DNA from: Solirubrobacteraceae bacterium
GTDB taxonomy: Bacteria; Actinomycetota; Thermoleophilia; Solirubrobacterales; Solirubrobacteraceae
Direction: 5' to 3'
NCBI GenBank assembly: GCA_049509055.1
Contig: JBELAG010000001.1
Location: 8,895-72,894, forward strand
Length of the DNA stretch: 64,000 nucleotides
The position numbers and the translations under genes are program-made. The notes beneath the pieces are model-generated. The model did not search any database. It saw only the letters and a list, made by a program, of their open reading frames with translations, and was not told where the DNA came from. Each line of letters starts with the position of its first letter. The stretch's first letter is position 1. Below, piece by piece: positions 8,104-54,102 of the stretch.

Positions 8104-10649
8104 CAGGCGTCTGCCCGGCGCCGGCGTGCGGCGATCGGCACGCTGGCCGCCGCGGCGATCAGGCCGAGCGCGCACAGCAGCGTGATCACCACCCCGATCG
8201 TCCAGCTCGCCGGCTGATACGTGAACACGATCGTGTGGCTCCCCGGCCCGACGCTGACGCCGCGCAGCAGGTAGTCGACGCGCCTGACGGTCGCCGGGCG
8301 GCCGTCGACGGTCGCGCTCCAGCCCGGATAGGAGTCGTCGGTGAGCACCACCAGGCTGCGCGCGGTCGCCGTCGCGTGGATCACGATCCGCTCCGCGCCA
8401 TAGGACGCCAGCCGCGCGCCGGCACCGGCCGGTGCCGGCGCTGAAGTGGACTGCGGCAGGCCCGCCAGCGGCGCCTCGGTGACCGCCACGCCGCGGCGAT
8501 CGAAGCCCGGGGCGGTGACCGCATCCAGCGCCGCGGCGTCGCCTTGCACGGTCTGCTGGTGGTCGACGACGAACACCCGCGGCAGCGCGTCGGCGTTGGC
8601 GTAGACGACGCCGTCATCGCCGCGGTAGGCGACGGTCAGGCCCGGGCCGCGAAGCGGCGACGCGACCGCCTGCAGCGGGCCGACCAGCAGATCGGACACG
8701 CTGAGCAGGTCGAGCGCGCGCAGCGACGCCGGCGTCGCGGAGGCGAACTCCTCGGGTTGGGTGAGCGCGCCGGTCCCGGGCGCCACGTCGCGGCGCCACA
8801 GGGCGTTGAGGCGCTTCTCGACCGGGAAGTCATAGCCGCGGGCGTCGTAGAGGCCGAAGTGCATCGCCAGGTCGGCGGGCAGCGGCTGGGTGAGCTCGAG
8901 CGTGCTGACCCCGATGAAGCGGTTGGGCCTCTGGCGCTGGAGGTAGCGGATCGCGCCGGTGACCGGCGGCGTCGCGTTCCGGATCGGGATCGCCGGGTTG
9001 AAGCCCATGTTGGCGCGGAACAGGTCGGCGGCGAGCAGCACCACGGTGAGCCCGACGAACACCTCGACCGCCAGCGGGCGGCGGGAGCGCAGCCGCGCCG
9101 CGATCAGCGCCAGGCCGGCGGCCGCCGGCGGCAGCCAGATCTCCAGCGAGCTGTCGCGGACGATCGCGCCGGTGAGCGTGAACTCGGCGTCGACGCCGGC
9201 CGGCGGCACCGGCGGATGCGCAAAGCCCCACGCCACCTTCAGGCCGGCCCACAGCTCGTGCAGGTTCAGCGTTCCGGCGACGGCCATCCACGCGATCGGC
9301 AGGCAGACGATCGCGCCCGCGGCGCCGATCACCGCGCGCCGGCCGATCCGGCTGGGGAGCTGCAGCGCGCTGAGGTCGTCGAGCCCCCAACCGGCGAGCA
9401 GCCCGAGGCTGAGCAGCACGTAGATCAGCAGCCGCTCGTTGTGGGCGGCGTCGAACCCGGGGAGCGCCGAGACGATGCCGAACACGGGCGGGATCCCCAC
9501 CACCATGCACACGCAGAACAGGGCGTAGGCGACGATCGCGATCCGCTCAGCGCTGCGGCGGAGGATCAGCGCGGCGGCGACGAGCATCAGCGTGACCGCG
9601 CCGGCGTACCAGCCCCGCACCTGCATGAACGACTCCAGGTCGATCTGCGTCGGCCGGCCCCAGTAGTCGTGCAGGAACAGCGCGCCCAGATACTTGCGCG
9701 GCCAGAAGCCGGCCGCCTGGTTGACGCGCTGGGCGAGGTCGCCGGAGTGCAGCACGAACTCCGCGAACGGCGCGAGCACGAGCGCCGCCAGGCCGGTGCC
9801 CGCGACGAGCGCGAGCACGAACGCGCCGGTCGGCGCCAGCAGGCTGCGCGCGCCGGCGCCCGCGCGATGGCGGTGCAGCAGCGCCCGGAAGACGAAGAAC
9901 ACCACCGTGGTGAACAGCAGATGGAAGCTCGATTCGGGGTGACCGCCGAGGAACTGCAGGCCGACGACCGCGGCCAGCCCGGCGACGGTCAGCCGCGCCG
10001 GGCGCCGGACGAGAAGCTCGGTGAGCGCGAGCGTCCACCCGATGAAGGCATAGACGCTGCTCAGCGGCCAGGCCAGCCAGACGACGAAGAACGTCCCGAA
10101 AGCGAACACCACCCCGCTCAGCAGGGCGCCCCCGAAGCGCATCCCGAGCACGCGGGCGAGCACGAACGTCCCCAGCGCGCCGAGGAACAGCTTGAGCATC
10201 GCCGCGACGGCGAGCGACTTCCAGAACGGCAGCACGTAGGACGGCACGCTGAACGGCGAGAACACCGCCGACTGGCCGTCGGCCAGCAGCGGGCGCCCGG
10301 CCATGATGTAGGGGTTCCAGAGCGGGACTCCGGGGAGCTGGGAGCGGGTGTACTGCAGCATCGGCTGGAACACGTTGGAGGCGTCGGCGAGCTCGAAGTT
10401 GGTGCCCAGCCCGGGCACGTCGGCGGGCTTGGAGCTCTGCCACGGGACCGAGCTCAGCAGCGAGTCAGAGCTCGACAGGGTCCGTCCCGGCAGCAGTCCC
10501 TGGCCGACCATCAGCAGCGACAGCAGCGCATAGACGAGCGCGGCGGCGAGGGTGGGGCGGGCGGCCGCGAGCCGCAGGACGCGCTCCAGGGCCGGTGCTC
10601 GGGGGCCGGCGCGGAACGCCCGCGCGGCCGGCGTCGGGGCACTGGGCAC
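8103..10649 (-). CDS. YfhO-family GT-C membrane glycosyltransferase
   Basis: PLWNPYIMAGRPLLAD, QFLGGHPES, C-terminal DSYPGWSATVDG...GPGSHTIVFTYQP. Start placed at GTG 10649 (the ORF track over-extends it). Confidence 0.8.
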   Translation of the reverse strand: MPSAPTPAARAFRAGPRAPALERVLRLAAARPTLAAALVYALLSLLMVGQGLLPGRTLSSSDSLLSSVPWQSSKPADVPGLGTNFELADASNVFQPMLQYTRSQLPGVPLWNPYIMAGRPLLADGQSAVFSPFSVPSYVLPFWKSLAVAAMLKLFLGALGTFVLARVLGMRFGGALLSGVVFAFGTFFVVWLAWPLSSVYAFIGWTLALTELLVRRPARLTVAGLAAVVGLQFLGGHPESSFHLLFTTVVFFVFRALLHRHRAGAGARSLLAPTGAFVLALVAGTGLAALVLAPFAEFVLHSGDLAQRVNQAAGFWPRKYLGALFLHDYWGRPTQIDLESFMQVRGWYAGAVTLMLVAAALILRRSAERIAIVAYALFCVCMVVGIPPVFGIVSALPGFDAAHNERLLIYVLLSLGLLAGWGLDDLSALQLPSRIGRRAVIGAAGAIVCLPIAWMAVAGTLNLHELWAGLKVAWGFAHPPVPPAGVDAEFTLTGAIVRDSSLEIWLPPAAAGLALIAARLRSRRPLAVEVFVGLTVVLLAADLFRANMGFNPAIPIRNATPPVTGAIRYLQRQRPNRFIGVSTLELTQPLPADLAMHFGLYDARGYDFPVEKRLNALWRRDVAPGTGALTQPEEFASATPASLRALDLLSVSDLLVGPLQAVASPLRGPGLTVAYRGDDGVVYANADALPRVFVVDHQQTVQGDAAALDAVTAPGFDRRGVAVTEAPLAGLPQSTSAPAPAGAGARLASYGAERIVIHATATARSLVVLTDDSYPGWSATVDGRPATVRRVDYLLRGVSVGPGSHTIVFTYQPASWTIGVVITLLCALGLIAAAASVPIAARRRRADA

Positions 10650-10697
10650 GGCGTGATCGTATCTGCCCTCCCGCGGCGTCAGGTAGCCTCCGGCCGC

Positions 10698-11909
10698 ATG
10701 GAAGGAGGCATCCAGGTCCATCCCGAGACCCCGCCCGGCGCGCTCGCGCCCCAGCTCGGCGGCGGCGACGGTCGCGACCGGCCGCTGCGGATCCTCGTCC
10801 TCGCCGACCGCGACTGGACGCATCCGCAGGGCGGCGGCACCGGCGCCAACGTCTATGAGAACGTGATCCGCTGGGCGCGCTGGGGCAATCGGGTGACGCT
10901 CGTCGCGGGCGAGTATCCGGGCTGCCGGGCGGTGGAGGAGATCACCCCCAACCTCGTCGTGCACCGGATGGGCGGCCGCGGATCGGTGTTCCCCCGGGCG
11001 ACATGGGCCGTGCTGCGCGGTCTGGGCGCCGATGCCGACGTCGTCTTCGAGGTGATCAACGGGATCACCTTCCTGACCCCGCTGTGGCTGCGCAAGCCGT
11101 GCGTGGCGCTCGTCAACCATCCTCATCGCGACCTCTACATCGGCGAGTTCGGGCGGCGCCTGGGGCGGCTGCTGTCCGCCGGGCTGGAGGAGGTGCCGCT
11201 GCGCATGCTCTACCGCCGGGTCCCGTTTCTGACGATCTCGGACTCGGCCCGGCAGGAGCTCGTCTCGATCGACGGGATCCCGCTCGAGCACATCACGATC
11301 GCCTACTGCGGGGTCGGCCCGGGCGACTTCAGCCCCGGGGAGCGCTCGCCGGACCCCCGCCTGCTGTACGTCGGCCGCCTGAAGGCCTACAAGCGGATCG
11401 AGGTGCTGCTCGACATGCTGACCGACCTGCCCGGCGTGACGCTCGACGTCGCCGGCGCCGGCGACCACGGCGAGACGCTCGACGGGGAGATCTCCAAGCG
11501 CGGTCTCGGCTCCCGCGTCCGGGTCCACGGCTACGTCGACGAGCAGACGAAGGCCGATCTCTACCGCCGGGCGTGGGTGCACGTCACCGCCTCGGTGTCG
11601 GAGGGCTGGTCGCTGACGGTGATGGAGGCGGCGCTGTGCGGGACGCCGAGCGCGGCGCTGCCGTGCGGCGGCCTGCGCGAGTCGATCGTCGACGGGGAGA
11701 CCGGAGTGCTGGCCGCCGATCCCGCCCAGCTGACGATCCGCGTCCGCGAGCTGCTGAAGGACGGCGCGCTGCGTGACCGGCTCGGCGCCGCCGCCCTGGC
11801 GCGCGCCCGGACGTTCACCTGGGAGCGCACGGCGGCCACGACGCTGGCCGTCGTCCAGCGTCAGGCCGCGGTGGCCGCCTCGCGATCGCGCCGCCTGCCC
11901 CGGGCGTGA
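10698..11909 (+). CDS. Glycosyltransferase family 4
   Basis: LRILVLADRDWTHPQGGG, LLYVGRLKAYKR, EGWSLTVMEAALCGTP. ATG 10698. Confidence 0.9.
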   Translation: MEGGIQVHPETPPGALAPQLGGGDGRDRPLRILVLADRDWTHPQGGGTGANVYENVIRWARWGNRVTLVAGEYPGCRAVEEITPNLVVHRMGGRGSVFPRATWAVLRGLGADADVVFEVINGITFLTPLWLRKPCVALVNHPHRDLYIGEFGRRLGRLLSAGLEEVPLRMLYRRVPFLTISDSARQELVSIDGIPLEHITIAYCGVGPGDFSPGERSPDPRLLYVGRLKAYKRIEVLLDMLTDLPGVTLDVAGAGDHGETLDGEISKRGLGSRVRVHGYVDEQTKADLYRRAWVHVTASVSEGWSLTVMEAALCGTPSAALPCGGLRESIVDGETGVLAADPAQLTIRVRELLKDGALRDRLGAAALARARTFTWERTAATTLAVVQRQAAVAASRSRRLPRA

Positions 11910-12673
11910 GCGTGCCGGCGGCCGCCGGCGGCGCGCGCTTTGCCGACGCGCTGGCCCGGGTCGGGGGCGTGCAGGGCTGGCTGACCGACGCGCAGGCCCG
12001 CTGTCTGTGGGACGCGGCCGGCGCCGTGGCGCCCGGCGGCCGGATCGTCGAGATCGGCTCCTTTCACGGCCGCTCGACGATCGTGATGGCCTGCGCGCTG
12101 CGCGACGGCGTCGAGCTGATCGCGATCGACCCCCACGGCGGCGGGGACCGCGGGCCGCAGGAGATCACGCCCGATGCCGCCGCGGGCGAGCGCGACCATG
12201 CGGCGTTCGCCGCCAACCTCCACGCGGCGGGCGTCGAGGACCGGGTGCGACACGTGCGGGCGATGTCGGACGCGGCGCTCGGGGAGGTGGCCGGGCCGAT
12301 CGACGTCCTCTATGTCGACGGCGCCCATCGCTACCGGCCGGCCAGCGCCGACATCGCGCGCTGGGGGGCGCGGGTGGCGCCGGGGGGCTCGATGCTGATC
12401 CACGACTCGTTCAACGCGATCGGCGTGATGCTCGCCCAGCTGCGGCTGCTCGTGTTCTCGCGGCGCTGGCGCTACGGCGGGCGCCGCGGCTCGCTCGCCG
12501 TCTACCGCCGCGAGCCCGAGCCGCTCGCCGGCGCCGACGTCGCGGTCAACGCCATCCGCCAGCTGGCGGAACTCCCGTACTTCGCGCGCAACCTGCTCGT
12601 CAAGGTCGCGGTCGTCGCGCGGATCGCGCCGCTGGCGCGGCTGCTGGGCCACGGCGGCGGCTGGCCCTACTGA
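11906..12673 (+). CDS. Class I SAM-dependent methyltransferase (Methyltransf_24-like)
   Basis: IVEIGSFHGRST and DVLYVDGAHRY motifs. GTGA coupling to the GT4 gene. Confidence 0.85.
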   Translation: MSVPAAAGGARFADALARVGGVQGWLTDAQARCLWDAAGAVAPGGRIVEIGSFHGRSTIVMACALRDGVELIAIDPHGGGDRGPQEITPDAAAGERDHAAFAANLHAAGVEDRVRHVRAMSDAALGEVAGPIDVLYVDGAHRYRPASADIARWGARVAPGGSMLIHDSFNAIGVMLAQLRLLVFSRRWRYGGRRGSLAVYRREPEPLAGADVAVNAIRQLAELPYFARNLLVKVAVVARIAPLARLLGHGGGWPY

Positions 12674-13557
12674 CCGGCGGCCTCGCGGTCGGCGGTCACC
12701 GGCCCGGCGGCGCTGGTGAGCGCCTCCAGGGCGGCGGGCAGCGCGAGCTCGGAGGCGGCGATCGTCACCGGCGGCGACTCCGGGTCGAGCCGTGGGTCGG
12801 CGAGCGGCACGGTGCGGGCGGGCCACGCCCGTCGCAGCCGCGGCCAGCGCAGGCTGGGGACCAGCCACAGCGCCTCGATCGCGATCGAGAGCGAGATCTT
12901 GCTCTCGCCGACCGTCCGGTCCCGGAACACGATCGGCACCTCGACGACGCGGAAGCCGGCTCGCTGCGCGCGGTAGCCGAACTCGATGTTGAAGACGTAA
13001 CCCTGTGAGCGCAGGGTGGCGAGATCCACGCCCTCCAGCACCTCGCGCCGGATCGCGCGATAGCCGCCGGTCAGGTCGCGCACCCCGACGCCCAGGATCG
13101 TGCGGGCGTACAGCGATCCGGCGCGGCTGAGCAGCCGCCGCAGCCGCGGCCACTGGACGATCGCGCCGCCGGGGACATAGCGGGAGCCGAGCACCAGGTC
13201 GTGGTCGAGGGCGGCGGCGAGCAGCTCGGGCAGGTGCCCGGGGTCGTGCGAGTAGTCGGCGTCCATCACGATCACCAGTTCGGCGCCGCCCGCGAGCGCG
13301 TGCTCGAAGCCGGCCCGGTAGGCGCGACCCAGGCCCTGCTTGCCGGCGCGGTGCAGGACCTCGACGCCGGGCAGCCGCGCGGCGAGCGCGTCGGCGACCC
13401 GTCCGGTGCCGTCGGGCGAGGCGTCGTCGACGATCAGCACCCGGTGGTCGCCGGGCGCGCTGAGCTGCAGTTGCGCCAGCACCGCGCGCACGATCCGCTC
13501 CACGTTGCCGGCCTCGTTGAAGGTCGGCACGGTCACCCAGATTCGGGGTCCATCCAT
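12667..13557 (-). CDS. ppm1: Polyprenol monophosphomannose synthase-like GT2
   Basis: VPTFNEAGN, IVDDASPDGTG, MDADYSHDP, DLTGGYRA, SQGYVFNIE, VPIVFRDRTVGESK. Confidence 0.85.
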   Translation of the reverse strand: MDGPRIWVTVPTFNEAGNVERIVRAVLAQLQLSAPGDHRVLIVDDASPDGTGRVADALAARLPGVEVLHRAGKQGLGRAYRAGFEHALAGGAELVIVMDADYSHDPGHLPELLAAALDHDLVLGSRYVPGGAIVQWPRLRRLLSRAGSLYARTILGVGVRDLTGGYRAIRREVLEGVDLATLRSQGYVFNIEFGYRAQRAGFRVVEVPIVFRDRTVGESKISLSIAIEALWLVPSLRWPRLRRAWPARTVPLADPRLDPESPPVTIAASELALPAALEALTSAAGPVTADREAAGQ

Positions 13558-43970: not shown

Positions 43971-45851
43971 ATGAACAACGAAGAGATCCATCAGCTCGCC
44001 CAGCGCCTGCGCATCGATTCGATTCGCGCCGCCGCGGCCGCCAACTCGGGGCACCCGACGTCGTCGATGTCCGCGGCCGACCTGATGGCGGTGCTGATGG
44101 CGCGTCATCTGCACTACGACTACGACGCTCCGGAGAACCCCAACAACGATCACCTGATCTTCTCCAAGGGTCACGCGTCGCCGCTGGTCTACGCGATGTT
44201 CCTGGCGGCCGGGGCGATCACCGACGAGGAGCTGCTGACCTTCCGCAAGTTCGGCTCCCGGTTGGAGGGCCATCCCACCCCGCTGCTGCCGTGGGTCGAT
44301 GTCGCCACCGGATCGCTGGGCCAGGGACTGCCGATCGGCGCCGGGATCGCGCTGTGTGCCCGGGACCTCGATCGCCTGCCCTACCGGGTGTGGTGCCTGT
44401 GCGGCGACTCCGAGATGGCCGAGGGGTCGATCTGGGAGGCCGTCGAGCACGCGGGCGTCGAGGGGCTCGACAACCTCGTCGCGATCGTCGACGTCAACCG
44501 GCTCGGTCAGCGCGGTGAGACCATGCACGGCTGGGATCTCAGCTCCTACGCCAAGCGGGCGGAGGCCGGCGGCTGGCATGCGATCGAGGTCGACGGCCAC
44601 GACGCGGCCGAGATCGATCGCGCCTACACCGAGGCCGTCGCGACGACCGGGCGCCCGACGATGATCGTCGCGCGGACGATCAAGGGCTACGGCGCCACCG
44701 AGACCGCGAACGTCGAGGGCAAGCACGGCCAGCCACTCAAGGATCCCGAGAAGGCGATCCACGAGCTCGGCGACGTCGCGCCGGTTCACGTCGCGGTGGC
44801 CAAGCCGCAGAGCACCGGCACCCCGCACCGCTTCGACGCCGATCCGTCCTCACCGCTGCCCGCCTACGAGCTCGGCGGCGCTCCGGTCCCGACCCGCAAG
44901 GCGTTCGGCGAGGGCCTGGCGGCGGTCATGCGCCGGCGTGGCGATGTCGCGGCGATCGACGGCGAGGTCGGCAACTCCACGCACCTCGAGGAGGTGATCA
45001 AGGACACCCCCGAGCGGTACTTCGAGGCCTACATCGCCGAGCAGATGATGATGGCCACCGCCGTCGGCTTCCAGGTCCGGGGGTACACGCCGTTTGCGGC
45101 CACGTTCGCCGCGTTCCTCTCCCGGGCCTATGACTTCGTCCGGATGGCGGTCATCTCCCAGGCCAAGCTGTGCATCAACGGATCGCACGCCGGCGTCTCG
45201 ATCGGCGAGGACGGACCGTCCCAGATGGCGCTCGAGGACCTGGCCGAGTTCCGCGCGCTCGGAAACTCGGTCGTCCTGTATCCCGCCGATCCCAACCAGA
45301 CCGCCAAGCTCGTGCAGGCGATGGCCGACCATGACGGCATCTCCTATCTGCGCTCCACGCGGTCGGCGCTGCCGACCCTGTACGGCCCCGACGAGGAGTT
45401 CGCGATCGGGGGCTCGCGCGTGGTGCGCGAGTCAGACGATGACCAGGTCACGCTGCTCGGAGCGGGCGTGACCCTGCACGAGGCGATCAAGGCGGCCGAC
45501 GCGCTCGCCGGCGACGGCATCGCGGCGCGGGTGATCGACGTGTACTCGGTCAAGCCGATCGATGCCGACACGCTGGCGGCGGCGTCGCGCGCGACCGGCG
45601 GGCGGTTCGTCGTGGCCGAGGACCACTGGCCCGAGGGCGGGCTCGGCGACGCCGTGCTGAGCGTGTTCGCCGACAGCGACGAGCGTCCCCGCGTGGTCAA
45701 GCTCGGCGTGACCCATCTGCCGGGCTCGGGCACGATGGCCGAGTTGCTGGCCGACTGCGGCATCGACGCCGAGGCGATCGCCACCGCCGCCCGGCGACTC
45801 GCCGCCCTCGGCCCGCAGATCGCCACCGCCTCCGCCGCCGGCGCGAGCTGA
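43971..45851 (+). CDS. tkt: Transketolase
   Basis: SGHPTSSMS, FSKGHASP, ATGSLGQG, GDSEMAEG (ThDP motif), IAEQMM, GEDGPSQM. 626 aa. Confidence 0.95.
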   Translation: MNNEEIHQLAQRLRIDSIRAAAAANSGHPTSSMSAADLMAVLMARHLHYDYDAPENPNNDHLIFSKGHASPLVYAMFLAAGAITDEELLTFRKFGSRLEGHPTPLLPWVDVATGSLGQGLPIGAGIALCARDLDRLPYRVWCLCGDSEMAEGSIWEAVEHAGVEGLDNLVAIVDVNRLGQRGETMHGWDLSSYAKRAEAGGWHAIEVDGHDAAEIDRAYTEAVATTGRPTMIVARTIKGYGATETANVEGKHGQPLKDPEKAIHELGDVAPVHVAVAKPQSTGTPHRFDADPSSPLPAYELGGAPVPTRKAFGEGLAAVMRRRGDVAAIDGEVGNSTHLEEVIKDTPERYFEAYIAEQMMMATAVGFQVRGYTPFAATFAAFLSRAYDFVRMAVISQAKLCINGSHAGVSIGEDGPSQMALEDLAEFRALGNSVVLYPADPNQTAKLVQAMADHDGISYLRSTRSALPTLYGPDEEFAIGGSRVVRESDDDQVTLLGAGVTLHEAIKAADALAGDGIAARVIDVYSVKPIDADTLAAASRATGGRFVVAEDHWPEGGLGDAVLSVFADSDERPRVVKLGVTHLPGSGTMAELLADCGIDAEAIATAARRLAALGPQIATASAAGAS

Positions 45852-46103: not shown

Positions 46104-46286
46104 GCAACGCTACGCCGCGCCGGGAGATGCGCCCCCAAGTCCGATGAGTGAGTGCGTCTCGTTCGTTGAACTCGCGTAACCCATGGCAGGCAGCATCGCG
46201 GTTTGCGCGCCGCGCGTCAGCCAAGTTCTGGAGACGGGACTGTCCAATTCTGGACGCGCGACCGCCATGAGAAAATCGACCCGATC

Positions 46287-49019
46287 GTGACCGGATCCGC
46301 GCTTCCGACCGGGACAGTGACGCTGCTGTTCACCGACATCGAGGGCTCGACCGGCCTGCTGCTCAGGCTCGGCGAGCTGTATCAGGGCGTGCTGGGTCGC
46401 CACAACGAGCTGCTGCGCGAGCAGCTCGCGCGCCACGGGGGGGTCGAGTTCGGCACGATGGGCGATGCCCTGTTCGCGGCGTTCAGCTCCCCCCGCCGCG
46501 CGCTCGACGCGGCTCGCGGCGCGCAGGACGCGCTGGCCGCCGAGACGTGGCCGCGCGGCGAGACCGTGCGCGTGCGGATCGGAGTCCACACCGGAAGGCC
46601 GCGGATCGCCGAGCACACCTACTGGGGCGAGGACGTGCACTATGCCGCGCGCATCGCCGGCGCCGCCCACGGCGATCAGGTCGTCGTCTCCGCCGCGGCC
46701 GCGGAGCTCGTCGGCGAGGCCGGCCTGCTCGATCTGGGCGAGCACCGCGTCAAGGACTTTCCGATCCCGCGCCGGCTCTACCAGCTCGGGGCGGCCGCGC
46801 ACCCGCCGCTGCGCACCCTGGATCCGCTGCGCTCCAACCTGCCGAGCAGCCCCGGGGGCCTGATCGGACGTCAGGCCGAGTGCGCGCAGCTGATCGAGAC
46901 CTTCCGTGCGGGCGAGCAGCGGCTGGTGACGATCACCGGCGCCGGCGGGACCGGCAAGACCCGGGTCGCCCTCGAGGTGGCCGAGGCGATGGTCGGCGAG
47001 CTGACCGACGGGGCGTTCCTCATCTCGCTGACCGAGGTGTCGGCCGTCGACGGGGTGCTCGGGGCGATCGCCTCTCAGTTGAGGGTCCCCCTGCGGCCAG
47101 ACGCCGCGCCGGTCGACGCGATCGCCGGCGCGATCGGCCGCCGTCAACTGCTGCTGGTGCTCGACAACTTCGAGCACCTGCTCGACGCCGCCGTCCTCGT
47201 CGTCGATCTGCTCGACGCCGCGCCGGGGCTGCGCGTGCTCGTCACCAGCCAGGCTCCGCTGCGCGTCCGGGGCGAGCGCGTCAGCACCCTGGGCCCGCTT
47301 GCCGTTCCGGCGGGCGACGACATCGCGAGCCTTGACGCGGCGCCGGCCGGCCGGCTGCTGCTCGATCGCGCCCGTGAGGCCGTCCCGGATCTCGCGCTCA
47401 CCCCCGAGAGCGCGGCCTGCCTGGCGCGGTTGTGCCGGGCGTTGGACGGCCTGCCGCTGGCGATCGAGCTGGCGGCGGCCCGGCTGACGATCGTCTCGCC
47501 GGCGGAGCTGCTGGCGCGCGTCGGAGTCGGCATCGACGCGCTCGGTCGGGGGCCGCGCGATCTGCCGGTTCGCCAGCGCGGGCTGCGCGCAGCGCTGGAA
47601 TGGACGCACGGCCTGCTCGGCGACGGCGAGGCGAGGTTGCTGCGGCGGCTGGGGATCTTCGCCGGGCCGGCCTCGCTGGAGCGCATCGAGCGGATCTGCG
47701 CCGGGCCGCATGACCAGGTGCTCGACGCGATCGCGCAGCTGTGGGACTTCTCGCTGGTCATCCGGACCGGCGATGGTCGCTTCGACCTGCACGCTGCGGT
47801 GCGCGAGTACGCCCGTGACAAGCTGGACGAGTCCGGCGAGGCCGAGGAGCTGGCCCGACGCCATGCCTCCGAGTTCGCGCATGCGGCCCAGTCCTGGGGC
47901 CGGCGCTATCTGTTCGACGTCGCCGCCGTGCAGGCCGTCGTCGTCCGTGAGCAGCCCGACATCGGGGAGGCGCTGGCGTGGGCGGCCCACCACGACGACG
48001 ACTGCTTCGCGCGGCTCGCCGGAGGGGCGGCGATGGCGTTGCTGTTCACGGCGCGGCTGGGCCCGTGGCGCGAGCGCATCGATGCGGCGCTCGCGCGCGA
48101 GACGGTGACCGGGGAGCCGCGGGCGTGGCTGCTGCTGGCCGGCGGCCTGGCCGCGCTCGCCGCCGACGACGCCGGGCGCGCACATACGATGCTGGGCCGG
48201 GCGACCGCCGCCGCGCAGGAGTCGGGCGACGCGTGGCTCGCCTGCCTGATGCTGACCTGCTCGGTCGTCCTGCACTTCCTCAGCGAGGCCACGCCCGAGG
48301 TCCGGACGATGCACTCGGCGCTGCGCGCGCGCGTCGCCGCGCTGGGCGACGACGCGTTCGGCTCGCTCGTGGAGGGGCTCGAGCCCTACCTGCTCGCCTA
48401 CTGCGACGCCGAGCTCGACCCCGAGCGCCTCGAGCAGGCCCAGCCGCTGTTCCTGTCGCTGCTGGCCGATCGCGCCCGCACCGACTTCCCGGCACGGATC
48501 GCGGCCTACTACTGGCCGGATTGCCTGATGGCCAGGGGCGAGCACGACGCGGCGCTGCGCGGCTACCTGGCCGCGCTGCGCACCGCCCGCGAGCGGGCCG
48601 ACCCGCTCGGCATCGCCTACCAGCTGGAGGGGATCGCGATCTCGCTCACCGGTCTCGGTCGCCACGAGGAGTCGCTGGAGGCCGCCGGCTGGGCCGAGTC
48701 GGCGCGACAGACCGCGGGGCGCTTCACCGACGAGGGGTGGAAGGCGTTGCTGGTGGACGCGACCGATCGGTCCCGGGCGGCGCTCGAGGCGCCGGCCGCC
48801 GCGGCCGCCTTCGCGCGCGGGCGCGCGCTCGGACTCGACGGCGCCGTCACCGCCGCGCTGGGCTTCGATCAGCCGTCCGCCGGCGCCGCGGTGACCGGCG
48901 GGATCTGCAGCGACCCCTCGACGAACGCGCACAGCACGTCGGGGTCCCAGGCGCCGATCCAGAACGACACCGGCCAGGCGGCCTCGGTGTCCAGCGTCGC
49001 GCCGAGCACACCGTCCTGA
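46287..49019 (+). CDS. Class III nucleotidyl cyclase + STAND/NB-ARC ATPase + TPR-like tail
   Basis: LFTDIEGST, GTMGDALF, RIGVHTG, YWGEDVHYAAR; ITGAGGTGKTR, LVLDNFEHL, LDGLPLAIELAAAR. The 3' ~150 nt overlap the convergent gene. Confidence 0.88.
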   Translation: MTGSALPTGTVTLLFTDIEGSTGLLLRLGELYQGVLGRHNELLREQLARHGGVEFGTMGDALFAAFSSPRRALDAARGAQDALAAETWPRGETVRVRIGVHTGRPRIAEHTYWGEDVHYAARIAGAAHGDQVVVSAAAAELVGEAGLLDLGEHRVKDFPIPRRLYQLGAAAHPPLRTLDPLRSNLPSSPGGLIGRQAECAQLIETFRAGEQRLVTITGAGGTGKTRVALEVAEAMVGELTDGAFLISLTEVSAVDGVLGAIASQLRVPLRPDAAPVDAIAGAIGRRQLLLVLDNFEHLLDAAVLVVDLLDAAPGLRVLVTSQAPLRVRGERVSTLGPLAVPAGDDIASLDAAPAGRLLLDRAREAVPDLALTPESAACLARLCRALDGLPLAIELAAARLTIVSPAELLARVGVGIDALGRGPRDLPVRQRGLRAALEWTHGLLGDGEARLLRRLGIFAGPASLERIERICAGPHDQVLDAIAQLWDFSLVIRTGDGRFDLHAAVREYARDKLDESGEAEELARRHASEFAHAAQSWGRRYLFDVAAVQAVVVREQPDIGEALAWAAHHDDDCFARLAGGAAMALLFTARLGPWRERIDAALARETVTGEPRAWLLLAGGLAALAADDAGRAHTMLGRATAAAQESGDAWLACLMLTCSVVLHFLSEATPEVRTMHSALRARVAALGDDAFGSLVEGLEPYLLAYCDAELDPERLEQAQPLFLSLLADRARTDFPARIAAYYWPDCLMARGEHDAALRGYLAALRTARERADPLGIAYQLEGIAISLTGLGRHEESLEAAGWAESARQTAGRFTDEGWKALLVDATDRSRAALEAPAAAAAFARGRALGLDGAVTAALGFDQPSAGAAVTGGICSDPSTNAHSTSGSQAPIQNDTGQAASVSSVAPSTPS

Positions 49020-49747
49020 TCGCCGGAGACGGTCGCCGGGCCGACCATCGGGAAGCTGAAGCGCTCGACGTGATAGCGACTGGTCACGCGGCGGTCGGAG
49101 GGTTTGTCGAGTCCGATCCGCAGCTCCGCCAACCGGCCGCGCAGCGCGGTCGCCGCCACCGATTCCGAATCGGCGCCCAGCTTCTCCAGCTCGGCGGTGA
49201 GCGCGTCGAAGCGCGCCTGCCGGTCGGCCACGGAGTCCCAGATCCCGGTCGCGGCTCCGACCGTGTCGGGCTCGAACGCGAAGCCGGAGGCCCCCTGCCG
49301 CGCCAGGTCGCTGCTGGCCGCCTGCCAGACCGGCCGGGTCGGATCCGCGGGGTTCAGCGGCGAGGTGCGGTCGATCGCCAGCCGATCGCTCTCGATCCGC
49401 AGGTGAAACGGGACGATCGGCTCATAGCCGGACTCCGTCAGCGCTCCCTGCCGGTTCTCCAGCTTGGGCGCCTCCAGCAGGTCGACCGTCGCCCCGACCA
49501 GCTCGGGGACGATCCGGCCGGTGTCCACCCATTTCGCCGCACGGACGCGCACGCCGATCGGCGGCGATTGGGAGCGCGCAACGAACACGGCCTCCGGCGG
49601 TGGCTGGACGTACAGGATGCGGTCAAGGTCGGGCTCCCCGGCGAACGCGAACGTGTACCCGCTCACGCCGCGGGGCTCGTCGGATGGATCGGGATCGGTG
49701 GCCAGGCGGAGCAGGCACCAGCCCGCAAAGCCGAGGACCAGCGTCAT
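48869..49747 (-). CDS. Uncharacterised protein (FxGW..RLATDPDP family), partner of the ferritin-like gene
   Basis: MTLVLGFAGWCLLRLATDPDPSDEPRGVSGYTFAFAGEPDLDR. ATGA coupling to the ferritin-like gene; coding-like GC3. Confidence 0.7.
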   Translation of the reverse strand: MTLVLGFAGWCLLRLATDPDPSDEPRGVSGYTFAFAGEPDLDRILYVQPPPEAVFVARSQSPPIGVRVRAAKWVDTGRIVPELVGATVDLLEAPKLENRQGALTESGYEPIVPFHLRIESDRLAIDRTSPLNPADPTRPVWQAASSDLARQGASGFAFEPDTVGAATGIWDSVADRQARFDALTAELEKLGADSESVAATALRGRLAELRIGLDKPSDRRVTSRYHVERFSFPMVGPATVSGDQDGVLGATLDTEAAWPVSFWIGAWDPDVLCAFVEGSLQIPPVTAAPADG

Positions 49748-51021
49748 CGCGCCGGCGCCGTGGCGGGCGTCGCCATGTTCGTCCTGAAGTCCATCTCCAT
49801 CCGGGCCAGGTTCTCGGCCATCAGCGTCAGCCGGGCCTGGATCGCCGGCGTGTAGCTGCGGTGATCGCCGGCGAACTGCTGGGCGCGGCCGGCGAGTTGC
49901 GCCAGCCGGTCGGCGATGATGGCCCACGCCGACGCGCGGTGGGGCAGCAGCGCGATCGGGCGCTCGAAGCGGAAGCGCGCGCCCGCCCGAATGGAGCCGT
50001 GGGGGGACAGCGGCAATTGGGCGACGATCTCGCCGAGCGGGCGGATCACCGCGGTCATCATCGGGAAGAACGTGACGTGCTGCAGGGCGGCGACGTCGCC
50101 GGCGGTCTGGTCGGTCTGTGAGAGGAAGCGCGCCAGCAGCAGCATCAGCGTCTCATAGGCGAGGTCGAACAGGTCGACGAGCGCGGCGGTGGAGGCGAGC
50201 CCGAACCGGGCGGAGAGCGGCCGACCGGTGACCGGCCAGGCGGGATCGAACGCCGGGGAGCGCGCGCGCTCGGCGCCGAGCTCGATGGAGATCGAGCAGA
50301 AGCGCTCGAAGTGGCTCGTCGTCGCGCCGCTCGGGCCGCCCTCGCCCTCGACGATGATCTGCTGAATCGCCCCCTGCGCGGAGCGGTTGTCGCTGATGTC
50401 TCTCAGCGTGACGTCGTACGCGCCGCCGCCGGGCACCCCCACGCCGCGCACGTCGCCGGGGTCGCTGAGCTCGGCGGAGTCCGGCCCGATGAACAGCCCC
50501 TGCTCGTCGTGTGCGGACAGCTCGGCGAACAGCGAGCCGATCTCGCCGTAGAGCCGGCCGAGCGTCCGGTGCTCGTCGGGGTCGACGTGCGGCAGAGCCT
50601 GCGCGAGCAGGCGCCGCTCCTCGTCGGTCGGCTCCATCGGCATCTCGAACTTGATGAAGCGCTCCAGCGCTCCGGGGCCGAAGCGCTCCAGCCGGCTCTC
50701 GACGAGCAGCGGATAGGCCGACTTCAGCAACGGGAAGTTCGGGCGCTGCAGGTAGGGGGCCTCGCCGATCGCGGTCAGCATGTTGCAGACCAGGCCGAGA
50801 TGCTCCATCTCCTGGCGCGCTACCGCGAGCAGGCTCGCGTCCCAGCGCCGGATCAGCTCCAGCTGCGCCCAGCTCGGCCCGCCGCTGCGACTGCGCGCGC
50901 GCCGCAGCGAGAAGCTCGCGAACAGGTACTGGCAGAGCAGGCCGTGTTCGAGTTCGGCCGCCATGCACAGCAGCTCGGCGAGCCTGATCCGCTTGGCACC
51001 AGCCTCCAGGTCCGTGAGCAC
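49744..51021 (-). CDS. Ferritin-like domain protein (VioB C-terminal / PF12902 type)
   Basis: AAELEHGLLCQYLFA, ARQEMEHL, FIKFEMP, TLGRLY, IIVEGEG, SHFERF, MTAVIRPLGE. Start is uncertain. Confidence 0.82.
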   Translation of the reverse strand: MLTDLEAGAKRIRLAELLCMAAELEHGLLCQYLFASFSLRRARSRSGGPSWAQLELIRRWDASLLAVARQEMEHLGLVCNMLTAIGEAPYLQRPNFPLLKSAYPLLVESRLERFGPGALERFIKFEMPMEPTDEERRLLAQALPHVDPDEHRTLGRLYGEIGSLFAELSAHDEQGLFIGPDSAELSDPGDVRGVGVPGGGAYDVTLRDISDNRSAQGAIQQIIVEGEGGPSGATTSHFERFCSISIELGAERARSPAFDPAWPVTGRPLSARFGLASTAALVDLFDLAYETLMLLLARFLSQTDQTAGDVAALQHVTFFPMMTAVIRPLGEIVAQLPLSPHGSIRAGARFRFERPIALLPHRASAWAIIADRLAQLAGRAQQFAGDHRSYTPAIQARLTLMAENLARMEMDFRTNMATPATAPAR

Positions 51022-51112
51022 CCGGTCTGAAACCCTAACATCGCCGACCCGGGCGCGGGCCCCGCTCCCGCAGCGGTCCTCGGCCTGTCGTAGCCTAGTG
51101 AGTGGTGATCTC

Positions 51113-51799
51113 ATGACGGCAGGCGTTCTGGAGACCGGCGTCGCGCCGGACAGCTTTCTCGCGCTGCTCGACGACGTCGATCGCAGCGCCGTCCTCGACC
51201 TCGGCGTCGCGCGTGCGTTCCCGCGCGGCGCGGTGCTGATGTTCGAGCGTGAGCCGGGCGAGCGGCTGATGATCCTGCTCGCCGGCCGGGTCAAGGTCGC
51301 GGCGGCCGGCGAGAACGGCCACGACGTGCTGCTTTCGATCCGTGATCCGGGCGACGTCCTCGGCGAGCTGGCGTTCATCGACGGCCAGCCGCACAGCGCC
51401 ACCGTCAGCGCGCTGGAGCCGGTCAAGGCGGTGGTGATCTCATCCCGGGTGTTCCGCGCCCACCTGGAGACCGCCCCGCGCGTCGCGGTGGCGATGGTCA
51501 CGATCGTGACCCGCCGGCTGCGCGAGACGACGGTCAAGCGCTCGCAGTTCAGCGCCGACACGATCGCGCGGCTGGCGGCGCGGCTCGTCGAGCTCGCCGA
51601 CCGCTACGGCGCCGACACCGGCGACGGCCTCGAGATCGGCCTTGTTCTCTCCCAGCACGAGCTCGCCGAGTGGACCGGCGCCTCGCGCGCCGGGCTGGCC
51701 AAGGCGATGCAGACGCTGCGCGAGCTCGGCTGGATCGAGACCCAGCGCCGCCGGATCGTGATCCGCGACATCGACGCCCTGCGCCGCCGCGCCGCCTGA
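51113..51799 (+). CDS. Crp/Fnr family transcriptional regulator
   Basis: cNMP-binding domain (PGDVLGELAFIDGQPHSATV) + HTH (LSQHELAEWTGASRAGLAKAM). Confidence 0.92.
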   Translation: MTAGVLETGVAPDSFLALLDDVDRSAVLDLGVARAFPRGAVLMFEREPGERLMILLAGRVKVAAAGENGHDVLLSIRDPGDVLGELAFIDGQPHSATVSALEPVKAVVISSRVFRAHLETAPRVAVAMVTIVTRRLRETTVKRSQFSADTIARLAARLVELADRYGADTGDGLEIGLVLSQHELAEWTGASRAGLAKAMQTLRELGWIETQRRRIVIRDIDALRRRAA

Positions 51800-51837: not shown

Positions 51838-52416
51838 CTAGGTCCCCGGCGCCCCGGGTCCGCAGCGGTTGAGCAGGCGGGTGAACACCGCGGCGAGTAC
51901 GGCGGCCTCGTTGGGTTCCAACTGGTCAAGGAACGCCGACTCAACGAACGCGAACAGGTTGCGCTGAGCGTGGGCGGTCAGCGTCCGCCCCCGCCGCGTG
52001 AGCGTGACGTTGGTGGCGCGGGCGTCAGCGGGGCACGGCCGGCGATGCACCAGCTCGCGCTCCTCCAGCAGGTCGATCACGCGCGACACCCTGCTGACGC
52101 TCAGCCCCATCGCGTCGGCGAGCGCGCTCTGGCGCAGCGTGCCGGCCGGCGCCCGTGACAGTCGCCCGGTGATGCCGAGCATGCTGATCGTGAGCTCGGC
52201 ATCGGCCAGTAGAAGGTGCTCCGCGTCACGACGCAGGCGCCGCGCGACCTCGAGCAGGCCCTCCCACGCGATCGACTCGTCCGCGCTCCATTCCCGCTCG
52301 GCGTCGGCGCCCATCATGTGCAGCGCGCGGGCCGCGACCTGCGACGCGTCGGTCGCGACCGGCGACGGCGCATCGCCGATCGTGGAGGCGGGACGGCCGG
52401 CGGCGCGGGTGCTCAT
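51838..52416 (-). CDS. MarR family transcriptional regulator
   Basis: LRQSALADAMGLSVSRVSRVIDLLEERELVHRRPCPADARATNVTLT. Confidence 0.9.
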   Translation of the reverse strand: MSTRAAGRPASTIGDAPSPVATDASQVAARALHMMGADAEREWSADESIAWEGLLEVARRLRRDAEHLLLADAELTISMLGITGRLSRAPAGTLRQSALADAMGLSVSRVSRVIDLLEERELVHRRPCPADARATNVTLTRRGRTLTAHAQRNLFAFVESAFLDQLEPNEAAVLAAVFTRLLNRCGPGAPGT

Positions 52417-53342
52417 CGGCGGGCGTCGACCACGGAGATCTCGTTGCCGGCCGGGTCATGGAGCACGGTGGCGCCGCGCGCGGCGGGGGCCAGGGCAACG
52501 CCCGCGGCCGCGGCGCGGTCGGCCAGCGTGTCGCCACCGGCACCTCCGCGCAGGATCAGCTCATAGCTGCGCATCCCGGCGGAGCCCGGCGCGGCGCGGC
52601 GCGCGCCGGGACCGTGCCAGTCGTTGAGCGCGATGCGGTGGGGGAAGCGACCTCCCGCGCTGAGGTCGGCCATCCCGATCGCCGCCATGTAGGCGTGGTC
52701 CTCGAAGCCGATCACGTCGCGGTAGAACCGATGGGCGGCGCTCAGGTCCGGGACGTGGAGATGGACGTGCCCGACCGAGGTCCCCGTCGGCAGCGGCCGG
52801 CCGGGATCCAGGTCCCCGAGCGGCGCGAGCGCCGCCGCGAGGTCCAGCGGCTCGGTGGGCCCGCGCCGGCGCCCCTCGCTGTCGAGCAGCACGATCTCCC
52901 GTGGGCCGATCTCGAGCGAGCCGAGGCGCTCGGGCGTCTCGAGCGTGAGCTCGAGCAGGATCCCGTCGGGATCGTGCAGGTAGGTCGCCTTGGAGAAGAT
53001 GTGATCAGTCGGCGACTGGGGCACCCGCCCGATCGCGAGCCGGGCCAGCACGCGAGCGAACTCGGGCGCATCGGGAAGGTGGATCGCGAGGTGATACAGG
53101 CCGGCGCGCCCGTGCTCGGCCGGTCTCGCGGCCGTCGCTCGCAGCACGACCAGCGTCCGATCGTCGACGCCGAGGCGCGCCTGTCCGGGCGCGGATTGCA
53201 GCTCGGTGAGTCCGATCAGATCGCGCCAGAACGCGAGCGACCGCCCGAGCTCGACGACGTCGAGGTGGACGGCGCCGTAGGCGATGCGATCCTCGCCCAA
53301 CCCGCCGTCAGCGGGTGACACCGTCATCGTCGGGGTGCTCAT
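52413..53342 (-). CDS. catE: VOC/glyoxalase family, catechol 2,3-dioxygenase CatE-like
   Basis: GAVHLDV, GLYHLAIHLP, DHIFSKATYLHDPDG..LEL, VGHVHLHV, FYRDVIGF, HRIALNDW. Confidence 0.85.
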   Translation of the reverse strand: MSTPTMTVSPADGGLGEDRIAYGAVHLDVVELGRSLAFWRDLIGLTELQSAPGQARLGVDDRTLVVLRATAARPAEHGRAGLYHLAIHLPDAPEFARVLARLAIGRVPQSPTDHIFSKATYLHDPDGILLELTLETPERLGSLEIGPREIVLLDSEGRRRGPTEPLDLAAALAPLGDLDPGRPLPTGTSVGHVHLHVPDLSAAHRFYRDVIGFEDHAYMAAIGMADLSAGGRFPHRIALNDWHGPGARRAAPGSAGMRSYELILRGGAGGDTLADRAAAAGVALAPAARGATVLHDPAGNEISVVDARR

Positions 53343-53370
53343 CGTGTGCCTTTCTCGCGGATGGTGCTCA

Positions 53371-53395
53371 CGCGGACGGCGCCAAGCCGTCCGCG
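53371..53395. other. Perfect 10-bp hairpin in the catE leader
   Basis: CGCGGACGGC-gccaa-GCCGTCCGCG. Confidence 0.5.
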
Positions 53396-53403
53396 GCAAA
53401 TTG

Positions 53404-53490
53404 CTTGCTAGCGCAACGATAGCAGACGCACGAGCTTCGACGGATTTACTTGCGAGCGCAACCGTATTCGTGTATGGTTGCTCTAGCAAG
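53404..53490. promoter_or_regulatory. Three TTGC-N4-GCAA operator boxes (probable MarR sites) in the divergent catE/yceI promoter
   Basis: TTGCtagcGCAA 53405-53416, TTGCgagcGCAA 53450-53461, TTGCtctaGCAA 53478-53489, in an AT-enriched intergenic region. Confidence 0.75.
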
Positions 53491-53541
53491 TATCTCAGCG
53501 TGTCAGCCGACACCTCAGTCACGCACGAAACAAGGAGCACC

Positions 53542-54102
53542 ATGAGCGCCACCACCAGCACCCCCACCGTCGTCCCGTCGGGCACCTGGAGCGTCGACCC
53601 GGCCCACTCCACGATCGGCTTCGCCGTCAAGCACATGGGCATCGCGACGGTGCGCGGGGAGTTCCATGAGTTCGAGGGCACGCTGGAGGTCGGCGAGGAC
53701 CTCGCCGGCGCGACCGCCCACGGCACGGTCAAGGTCGAGTCGGTCGACACCAGCGAGGCGCAGCGCGACGAGCACCTGCGCTCGCCCGATTTCTTCGATG
53801 CCGCCGCGCATCCGGAGTTGACGTTCACCTCGACGCGCATCGAGGCTCTCGACAACGAGTCGTTTCGCATCACCGGCAACCTGACGCTGCACGGAGTGAC
53901 CAGGGAGGTCGTCCTGCGCGCAGACGTCCAGGGCACCGATGTCGACCCGTGGGGCAACGAGCGGGTCGGCCTCGAGATCAGCGGACAGCTGTCACGCGCC
54001 GACTACGGGATGAAGTTCAACCAGGCGCTGGGCAGCGGAAACATGCTCGTCGCCGATCGGGTCAAGCTCGTCCTCGACATCTCGGCCGTCAAGCAGGGCT
54101 GA
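53542..54102 (+). CDS. yceI: YceI family (polyisoprenoid-binding) protein
   Basis: WSVDPAHSTIGFAVKHMG, RDEHLRSPDFFD, GNLTLHGVTREV, DPWGNERVG. RBS AAGGAG. Confidence 0.93.
   Translation: MSATTSTPTVVPSGTWSVDPAHSTIGFAVKHMGIATVRGEFHEFEGTLEVGEDLAGATAHGTVKVESVDTSEAQRDEHLRSPDFFDAAAHPELTFTSTRIEALDNESFRITGNLTLHGVTREVVLRADVQGTDVDPWGNERVGLEISGQLSRADYGMKFNQALGSGNMLVADRVKLVLDISAVKQG

Follow-up and report, generated by a model that had tools for sequence, protein, structure and literature searches.

A 64,000-nucleotide window from the genome of a Solirubrobacteraceae bacterium (contig JBELAG010000001.1, positions 8,895 to 72,894; G+C approximately 73%) carries two adjacent genes, here called gene 1 and gene 2, that encode a ferritin-like protein and a partner protein of an uncatalogued family. 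The two open reading frames (ORFs) lie on the minus strand exactly where an earlier note on this DNA, made from the sequence alone, had placed a coupled gene pair, and the ATGA overlap that it described between them is present, which implies translational coupling. In further agreement with that note, gene 2 encodes a protein of no assigned family that starts MTLVLGFAGWCLLRLATDPDP and has no match in Pfam (PF12902, the family of gene 1, included), NCBIfam or PDB sequences, and the motifs that had been quoted for the two proteins, including LGFAGWCLLRLATDPDP, are all found in the translations. The features of the locus are collected in Table 1.

Table 1. Genes and other features of the locus, in window coordinates.
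Feature	Position	Strand	Description
Gene 1	49744-51021	minus	GTG start at 51021; 425 aa; P0001; PF12902 ferritin-like
Gene 2	48869-49747	minus	292 aa; P0002; uncatalogued family; partner of gene 1
ATGA stop/start overlap	49744-49747	minus	TGA of gene 1 shared with ATG of gene 2
Cyclase-STAND gene	46203-49019	plus	Guanylate_cyc (1.9e-11), AAA_16 NTPase and C-terminal repeat region; convergent to gene 2
Crp-family regulator	51113-51799	plus	cNMP_binding and HTH_Crp_2; divergent, 91 bp from gene 1 start
Gene 1/crp spacer	51022-51112	none	91-bp divergent intergenic region; presumed promoters
MarR-family regulator	51841-52416	minus	just past the Crp gene
YceI-like protein	53284-54102	plus	just past the Crp gene
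Transketolase	43971-45851		past the cyclase gene

VioB and its relatives RebD and StaD catalyse the key C-C coupling in violacein and indolocarbazole (staurosporine, rebeccamycin) biosynthesis. These enzymes (iminophenyl-pyruvate dimer synthase/chromopyrrolic acid synthase; TIGR04492) are single polypeptides of approximately 1000 aa, whereas the system described here is divided between two. The VioB family was collected with a C. violaceum VioB sequence as the query; annotated VioB/RebD proteins of up to 91% identity were retrieved, and only the retrieved sequences were used (27 in alignment A2). The earlier note had recognised in gene 1 the ligand pattern of the VioB C-terminal ferritin-like domain, and the protein carries it: a Pfam scan places PF12902 at residues 20-244 (113.8 bits against a cut-off of 22.3, E 1.4e-32), and the ELEH, QEMEH, FE, EGEG and SHF elements are present, read in context as AAELEHG, RQEMEHL, KFEMP, VEGEGG and TSHFERF. 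The likeness in fact exceeds what had been claimed. When the gene 1 family was aligned with the VioB family by profile-profile comparison (hhalign; probability 100%, E 1.8e-61), residues 5-411 of gene 1 matched VioB 592-992, a region that extends beyond the 221-column Pfam domain. Because the alignment covers this region, gene 1 corresponds, as judged by sequence comparison, to the whole C-terminal helical (ferritin-like) module of VioB/RebD/StaD. The VioB equivalog model TIGR04492 matches gene 1 partially (53.4 bits, model positions 604-735; cut-off 1250). E25, H26, E71, H74, E126, E227 and H237 of gene 1 are invariant across 78 homologues, and these residues are putative metal ligands, a set of four carboxylates with two to three histidines; the same conserved Glu/His positions are observed in the VioB C-module.

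Gene 1 is distinct from the classical ferritins, bacterioferritins and Dps proteins, which are four-helix-bundle subunits of approximately 160-180 aa, in contrast to its 425 aa; the Ferritin_2 model matches only a C-terminal stretch of the protein at 14.8 bits, under the cut-off of 24.7. The sole solved structure of a PF12902 protein is that of CC_0557 from Caulobacter vibrioides (PDB 3HL1; 317 aa), a structural genomics product without an assigned function, which has its Pfam family and helical-bundle fold in common with gene 1 and is too distant to be detected by phmmer with gene 1 as the query. We know of no solved structure of VioB, RebD or StaD. In an AlphaFold2 model of VioB (m7e96ab1b6a19), residues ~300-490 adopt a filamin-type Ig-like fold and the C-terminus matches 3HL1; the target-normalised template modelling score (TM-score) to 3HL1 is 0.65, and the VioB profile also matches it (E 0.014).

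Gene 2 is tightly linked to gene 1 across many phyla. A scan of 185,579 species genomes with a gene 2 pattern gave 144 confirmed relatives, the best 80 of which were examined as loci. In every one of them (80/80) gene 2 is immediately preceded, on the same strand, by a full-length homologue of gene 1. The earlier note had named a lack of co-occurrence of gene 2 with PF12902 genes among the findings that would refute its proposal; the two co-occur at every locus examined. The two genes overlap by 4 nt in 39 of the 80 loci and are separated by no more than approximately 15 nt in most of the others. The pair is found in Actinomycetota (Solirubrobacterales, Gaiellales, Streptomyces, Geodermatophilus and others), Myxococcota, Acidobacteriota, Chloroflexota, Gemmatimonadota, Alpha- and Gammaproteobacteria, Bacteroidota, Vulcanimicrobiota/Eremiobacterota and one metagenome-assembled genome of the Nitrososphaeraceae. 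The pairing is far above chance, and selection strongly favours adjacency, coupling or fusion of the two genes, which make up a two-protein unit. At least seven natural fusions were observed (P0128, P0174, P0210, P0211, P0228, P0261 and an ORF of Geodermatophilus poikilotrophus at L054), all with the ferritin-like part preceding the gene 2 domain and with differing linkers, and these argue for a physical complex between the two proteins. Among 401 genomes of the class to which the window belongs, a confident gene 2 was found only in the window's own genome, with one marginal match in G264 (E 2.4e-4, 21 bits); PF12902 is present in 17 of the 401, and full-length VioB was found in none.

The gene 2 family is large. 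A word-indexed search gave at least 805 clusters of homologues at 90% identity, called 'hypothetical protein' wherever a source names them, and an exhaustive phmmer search at E<=1e-3 gave 415 clusters (50% identity), 81 of them with E<=1e-30. An alignment of 44 sequences contains 47 invariant columns. These include G9, R14, T17-D-P-D-P21, D23, E24, R26, G27, S29-G-Y31 and E38-P39 in the N-terminal part, within which lies the invariant acidic loop TDPDPxDExRGxSGY, and N98-R99, D218-R-R220, W258, W263, G265, W267, D270 and G278 further along. The AlphaFold2 model built from the same alignment has a mean predicted local distance difference test score (pLDDT) of 91.2 and a predicted TM-score of 0.89, and combines beta sheets with a long helical hairpin at residues 172-214. 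Residues 19-30, in the most conserved stretch of the protein, form the only part of the model with pLDDT <50, a combination that in a predicted structure is typical of a segment ordered by a partner. A Foldseek search of the model against 350,542 PDB chains returned no match at E<0.001 (best query-normalised TM-score 0.16). Two proteins place the gene 2-type domain in other surroundings: in P0152 (860 aa) it is N-terminal to a Peptidase_S8 subtilase domain at 479-733, and in P0258 (485 aa) it is followed by a weak protein-kinase match. Either the domain is also used without ferritin-like partners, or these are fusions produced by gene calling.

Several lines of comparison suggest a relation of gene 2 to the N-terminal domain of VioB. 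A first profile-profile comparison aligned the N-termini only (P 0.008). With a 145-sequence alignment of gene 2, local hhalign alignment matched gene 2 64-282 with VioB 90-291 at a score of 32.2 (P 0.003), compared with 16.6 +/- 2.6 (maximum 24.2) for 150 column-shuffled profiles and 22.6 for the reversed profile, and global alignment was colinear from gene 2 1-285 to VioB 1-293 (P 8.4e-5, probability 32%). When the VioB N-domain profile was enlarged with divergent N-domains from Acidobacteriota, the local alignment reached a probability of 46.5% (P 2e-4). Positions that are conserved (>=80% in both families) and identical coincide at F7/F11, G9/G13, T17/T21, P62/P62, G85/G115, W267/W274, G278/G285 and P283/P290 (gene 2/VioB), eight in total compared with 0.86 +/- 0.95 (maximum 5) in 649 slid controls. 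They contribute to two shared motifs, F-x-G-W-x6-T and G-x-W-x4-L-x5-G-x-L-x2-P. The first has the same spacing in gene 2 (F7-x-G9-W...T17) and VioB (F11-x-G13-W...T21), and the resemblance between the VioB/RebD and gene 2 N-termini that the earlier note had pointed out is real; the similarity extends colinearly over the whole of gene 2, to VioB 1-293. The VioB model, made independently of that of gene 2 (pLDDT 82.6), has the same strand order along the alignment, with a secondary-structure Q3 of 0.60 versus 0.38 +/- 0.06 in slid controls and a strand-on-strand agreement of 0.70 versus 0.38 +/- 0.10. Like gene 2, the N-domain of the VioB model has no fold match in the PDB.

This similarity could also have arisen by chance or convergence, gene 2 being an accessory subunit (a chaperone, metal-delivery factor or regulator) with its own fold and unrelated by descent to VioB, and several observations point in this direction and away from homology. 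TIGR04492 does not match gene 2 at E<=1, and a hidden Markov model (HMM) of VioB 1-300 searched against 9,689 ORFs returned gene 2 ORFs only at E>=2, such that homology is argued only from profile-profile comparison, shared motifs and secondary structure. The hhalign probabilities for gene 2 and the VioB N-domain range from 5 to 46% and are all below 50%; a profile of acidobacterial N-domains alone gives just P 0.015; and the shuffled and slid controls are not stringent, since the real data were used to optimise the alignment. In sequence and structure, the VioB block WGHYNxYLxTTxNRAR is largely deleted from gene 2, the histidines of the VioB N-domain are missing, the VioB model shows nothing equivalent to the helical hairpin at 172-214, and the TDPDPxDExRG loop, invariant in gene 2, is not conserved in VioB. 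The fusion of the gene 2 domain to a subtilase in P0152 would also suit an accessory role. An accessory subunit of independent origin would not readily account for motifs that are colinear and identically spaced at both ends of the domain, nor for a secondary-structure agreement that exceeds all slid controls; gene 2 and the VioB N-domain moreover partner the same C-module, and in Acidobacteriota genuine VioB-N proteins are encoded next to the pair. We regard the accessory-subunit explanation as doubtful, though it is the most serious of the alternatives, and homology of gene 2 to the VioB N-domain as more likely than not. As for the comparison with VioB that the earlier note had proposed, the profile-profile statistics are suggestive rather than conclusive (P 8e-5 to 2e-4, probability 32-46%), and HMM-to-sequence searches are negative.

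If gene 2 and the VioB N-domain are homologous, the two systems differ in the arrangement of common parts. VioB runs from N-domain to C-module, whereas in the operon and in the fusions described here the C-module precedes the N-domain-like protein. The Ig-like middle region of VioB (~296-590) has no counterpart in either gene 1 or gene 2, and a homologue of the VioB N-domain and middle region was not found elsewhere in the window's genome (90.9% complete). In the literature consulted we found no report of this three-part domain layout of VioB. Gene 2 probably descends from the approximately 290-residue VioB N-domain, with the pair representing VioB minus its Ig-like spacer domains. In the suggestion that the two genes may reconstitute a minimal VioB-like enzyme, 'reconstitute' is too strong a word, as the middle region is absent and the fusion order is permuted.

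VioB-type proteins in separate pieces also occur in their own right. As natural examples of a split VioB gene, P0351 and P0353 (663-668 aa) are close homologues of VioB (42-43% identity) that correspond only to its N-terminal 58% and lack a PF12902 domain. A search with the VioB N-domain HMM showed that, in 10 loci from Acidobacteriota, the pair has true homologues of the VioB N-domain and middle region (570-750 aa) as immediate neighbours, sometimes together with near-full-length VioB-like genes, of which two were matched. At one of these loci, L064 (Pyrinomonadaceae), two such genes (9412-11583 and 11596-13533) directly follow the gene 1-gene 2 pair; the others are L060, L065, L067, L072-L074, L076, L079 and L081. 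The acidobacterial genes, one or two per locus, have no Pfam domain, and TonB-dependent receptors and VTT/DedA genes lie near them. Together, the N-only homologues (P0351, P0353 and the Pyrinomonadaceae genes) show that the VioB N- and C-modules can be separate polypeptides. They include the Ig-like middle and are recognised by the VioB HMM with E values down to 1e-37, whereas gene 2 is not so recognised. The presence of these genes beside the pair means that genomic context also ties it to VioB-type systems.

Beyond the pair, the most consistent neighbour is a cyclase gene. The window belongs to a clade of 30 members (support 100/99), in 26 of which an orthologue of approximately 1100 aa that combines Guanylate_cyc, AAA_16 and TPR domains is adjacent to the pair, and the clade HMM matches each of these full-length. 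The gene is directly upstream and co-directional in 19, and convergent in 7, the window included, where it abuts or overlaps the end of gene 2; among the remainder, 1 has a cyclase gene within 1 kb and 3 loci are cut by contig ends. A cyclase-STAND gene is also found in 5 loci outside the clade, and Pfam scans together with an iterated HMM detected a cyclase match in 36 of the 80 loci, approximately 29 of them adjacent. A phmmer search with the window's cyclase had suggested a link confined to close kin (6/80), which the Pfam scans and iterated HMM ruled out. In the window, the 3' ends of gene 2 and the cyclase-STAND gene overlap by 151 nt (48869-49019), and in related convergent cassettes these ends overlap or abut (-39 to +31 nt), which could permit antisense interference or transcriptional coupling. 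Proteins that join an adenylate cyclase to an AAA_16 NTPase and TPR or HTH domains include the mycobacterial Rv0386-type multidomain cyclases. The window gene has the same combination of Guanylate_cyc, AAA_16 and repeats, and differs in forming a cassette with the VioB-like pair.

A second recurrent companion is an oxidase with FAD_binding_4 and BBE domains, which 20 of the 80 loci carry, in most cases within approximately 20 nt downstream of gene 2. These sister cassettes thus co-encode a flavin oxidase, as VioA, RebO and StaO accompany VioB, RebD and StaD, with the difference that theirs is of the BBE/VAO type and VioA/RebO/StaO are of the amine-oxidase type. In describing the locus, the earlier note had correctly identified the gene pair and had overlooked both the conserved cyclase-STAND gene and the BBE oxidase of the sister cassettes. 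The Crp gene is likewise a neighbour in L001/L009 and L019 and is a lineage-specific companion; a canonical Crp box (TGTGA-N6-TCACA, <=2 mismatches) was not found in the spacer that separates it from gene 1. The MarR, YceI-like and transketolase genes do not recur with the cassette in other loci. Outside the cassette, the 128 flanking ORFs fall into 125 Pfam families, the commonest of which, cNMP_binding, accounts for 4 ORFs. Other clades are without the cyclase and have mutually unrelated contexts, such as HAD hydrolases in Streptomyces and TonB receptors with VTT/DedA in Acidobacteriota. No third gene universal to the loci was found: no cluster exceeds 18-24 of the 80, and the largest consists of antisense low-complexity noise. 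From the unrelated flanks and the missing cyclase in other clades it follows that the two-gene pair is the core, to which the cyclase-STAND gene, alone or accompanied by the oxidase, is an addition specific to a clade yet spread across phyla. No description of the split VioB-like pair, of the gene 2 family or of its link to the cyclase-STAND gene and BBE oxidase was found in the literature consulted.

With some reserve, we lean towards a minimal VioB-type metallo-oxidase with permuted domains, of which the two proteins would be the subunits. The gene 1 and gene 2 proteins would form a heteromer, with the acidic loop TDPDPxDExRG of gene 2 packed against the gene 1 metal site or completing it. 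The reaction of this complex would be the oxidation or coupling of a small molecule, or the consumption of H2O2. VioB itself contains heme b and has both imine dimerisation and catalase activity (PMC9705886). In fungi, PF12902 genes adjoin lodA-like oxidase genes (PMC4417212), a hint that PF12902 proteins may often act beside H2O2-producing oxidases.

In the violacein and rebeccamycin pathways, VioA and RebO feed VioB and RebD, respectively, and by analogy the flavin oxidase of the sister cassettes may supply the substrate. The cyclase-STAND and Crp genes would link the pair to signalling by cyclic nucleotides. Several observations count against this proposal. No His or Cys is invariant in the 44-sequence alignment of gene 2; an orthologue of the BBE oxidase was not found in the window's genome (best 31% identity); and the other clades have the unrelated, cyclase-free contexts described above. 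As the earlier note had stated, no tryptophan oxidase or indolocarbazole gene lies nearby, the neighbours being the transketolase, cyclase-STAND, Crp, MarR and YceI genes; the window has neither tryptophan-pathway genes nor VioC/D/E, whereas VioB/RebD/StaD are clustered with an L-tryptophan oxidase (VioA/RebO/StaO) and downstream tailoring genes. In addition, two genomes of the class encode full-length gene 1-like proteins without gene 2 (L089, L103), which indicates that the ferritin-like module can work alone: gene 2 needs a gene 1-type partner, and the dependence is one-way. L101 and L103 are found in G023, a genome from the same family as that of the window, which has tandem PF12902 genes, one of them full-length and gene 1-like, and no gene 2.

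The pair might alternatively be a device for metal homeostasis or oxidative stress rather than biosynthesis, one that oxidises or stores Fe or Mn or acts as a catalase or peroxidase with a helper. The carboxylate/His site of gene 1 is of the ferritin type, the catalase activity reported for VioB (PMC9705886) would suit such a role, and the pair is not surrounded by a biosynthetic gene cluster. Acidobacterial loci have TonB-dependent receptors (8 ORFs in 13 loci), MntP and AhpC nearby, and a VTT/DedA membrane protein is present in 18 of the 80 loci. These metal-related neighbours are, however, limited to particular clades, and gene 1 is unlike the 160-180-aa cage ferritins both in its VioB-specific C-terminal extension and in its sub-threshold Ferritin_2 score, while the BBE-type oxidase that follows gene 2 in 20 loci suggests an organic substrate. 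We consider this explanation rather unlikely, somewhat more so than an accessory role for gene 2.

In a more speculative extension of the metallo-oxidase proposal, to which we give little weight, the cassette would be a small-molecule signalling unit in which the VioB-like heteromer, fed by the BBE oxidase where present, makes or destroys a diffusible redox-active metabolite that is sensed by the TPR-STAND-cyclase, with cyclic AMP or cyclic GMP as the signal and Crp as its reader. In a conflict or anti-phage system, the STAND-TPR protein would be the sensor, the cyclase the output, and the ferritin-like protein and its partner, joined by the FAD oxidase where there is one, the redox effector. 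Such a system would fit the sparse distribution over several phyla of an evidently mobile, self-contained cassette with unrelated flanks and a STAND and TPR architecture, but is unlikely and the least probable of the explanations considered, as PADLOC-DB 2.0 (including Pycsar and Avs-type STAND models) matches neither protein of the pair nor the cyclase nor the BBE oxidase, Crp is the only component with a cNMP-binding domain and matches only the generic cNMP-binding part of Pycsar effector models, the flanks contain no restriction, abortive-infection or mobile-element genes, and most clades have the pair without a STAND gene.

As a natural minimal VioB divided between two small soluble proteins, the pair would be far easier to crystallise and dissect than VioB itself, and it would separate a conserved core, formed by the N-domain and the ferritin-like module, from dispensable Ig-like spacers. 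The gene 2 family is a widespread protein family that lies outside the domain databases and now has a testable role. The cassette formed by the pair, the cyclase-STAND gene and the BBE oxidase, moving between phyla, points to an oxidative metabolite or signal; if the signalling interpretation is true, it would be a mobile, self-contained circuit of enzyme, NLR-like sensor and second messenger distributed over at least six phyla.

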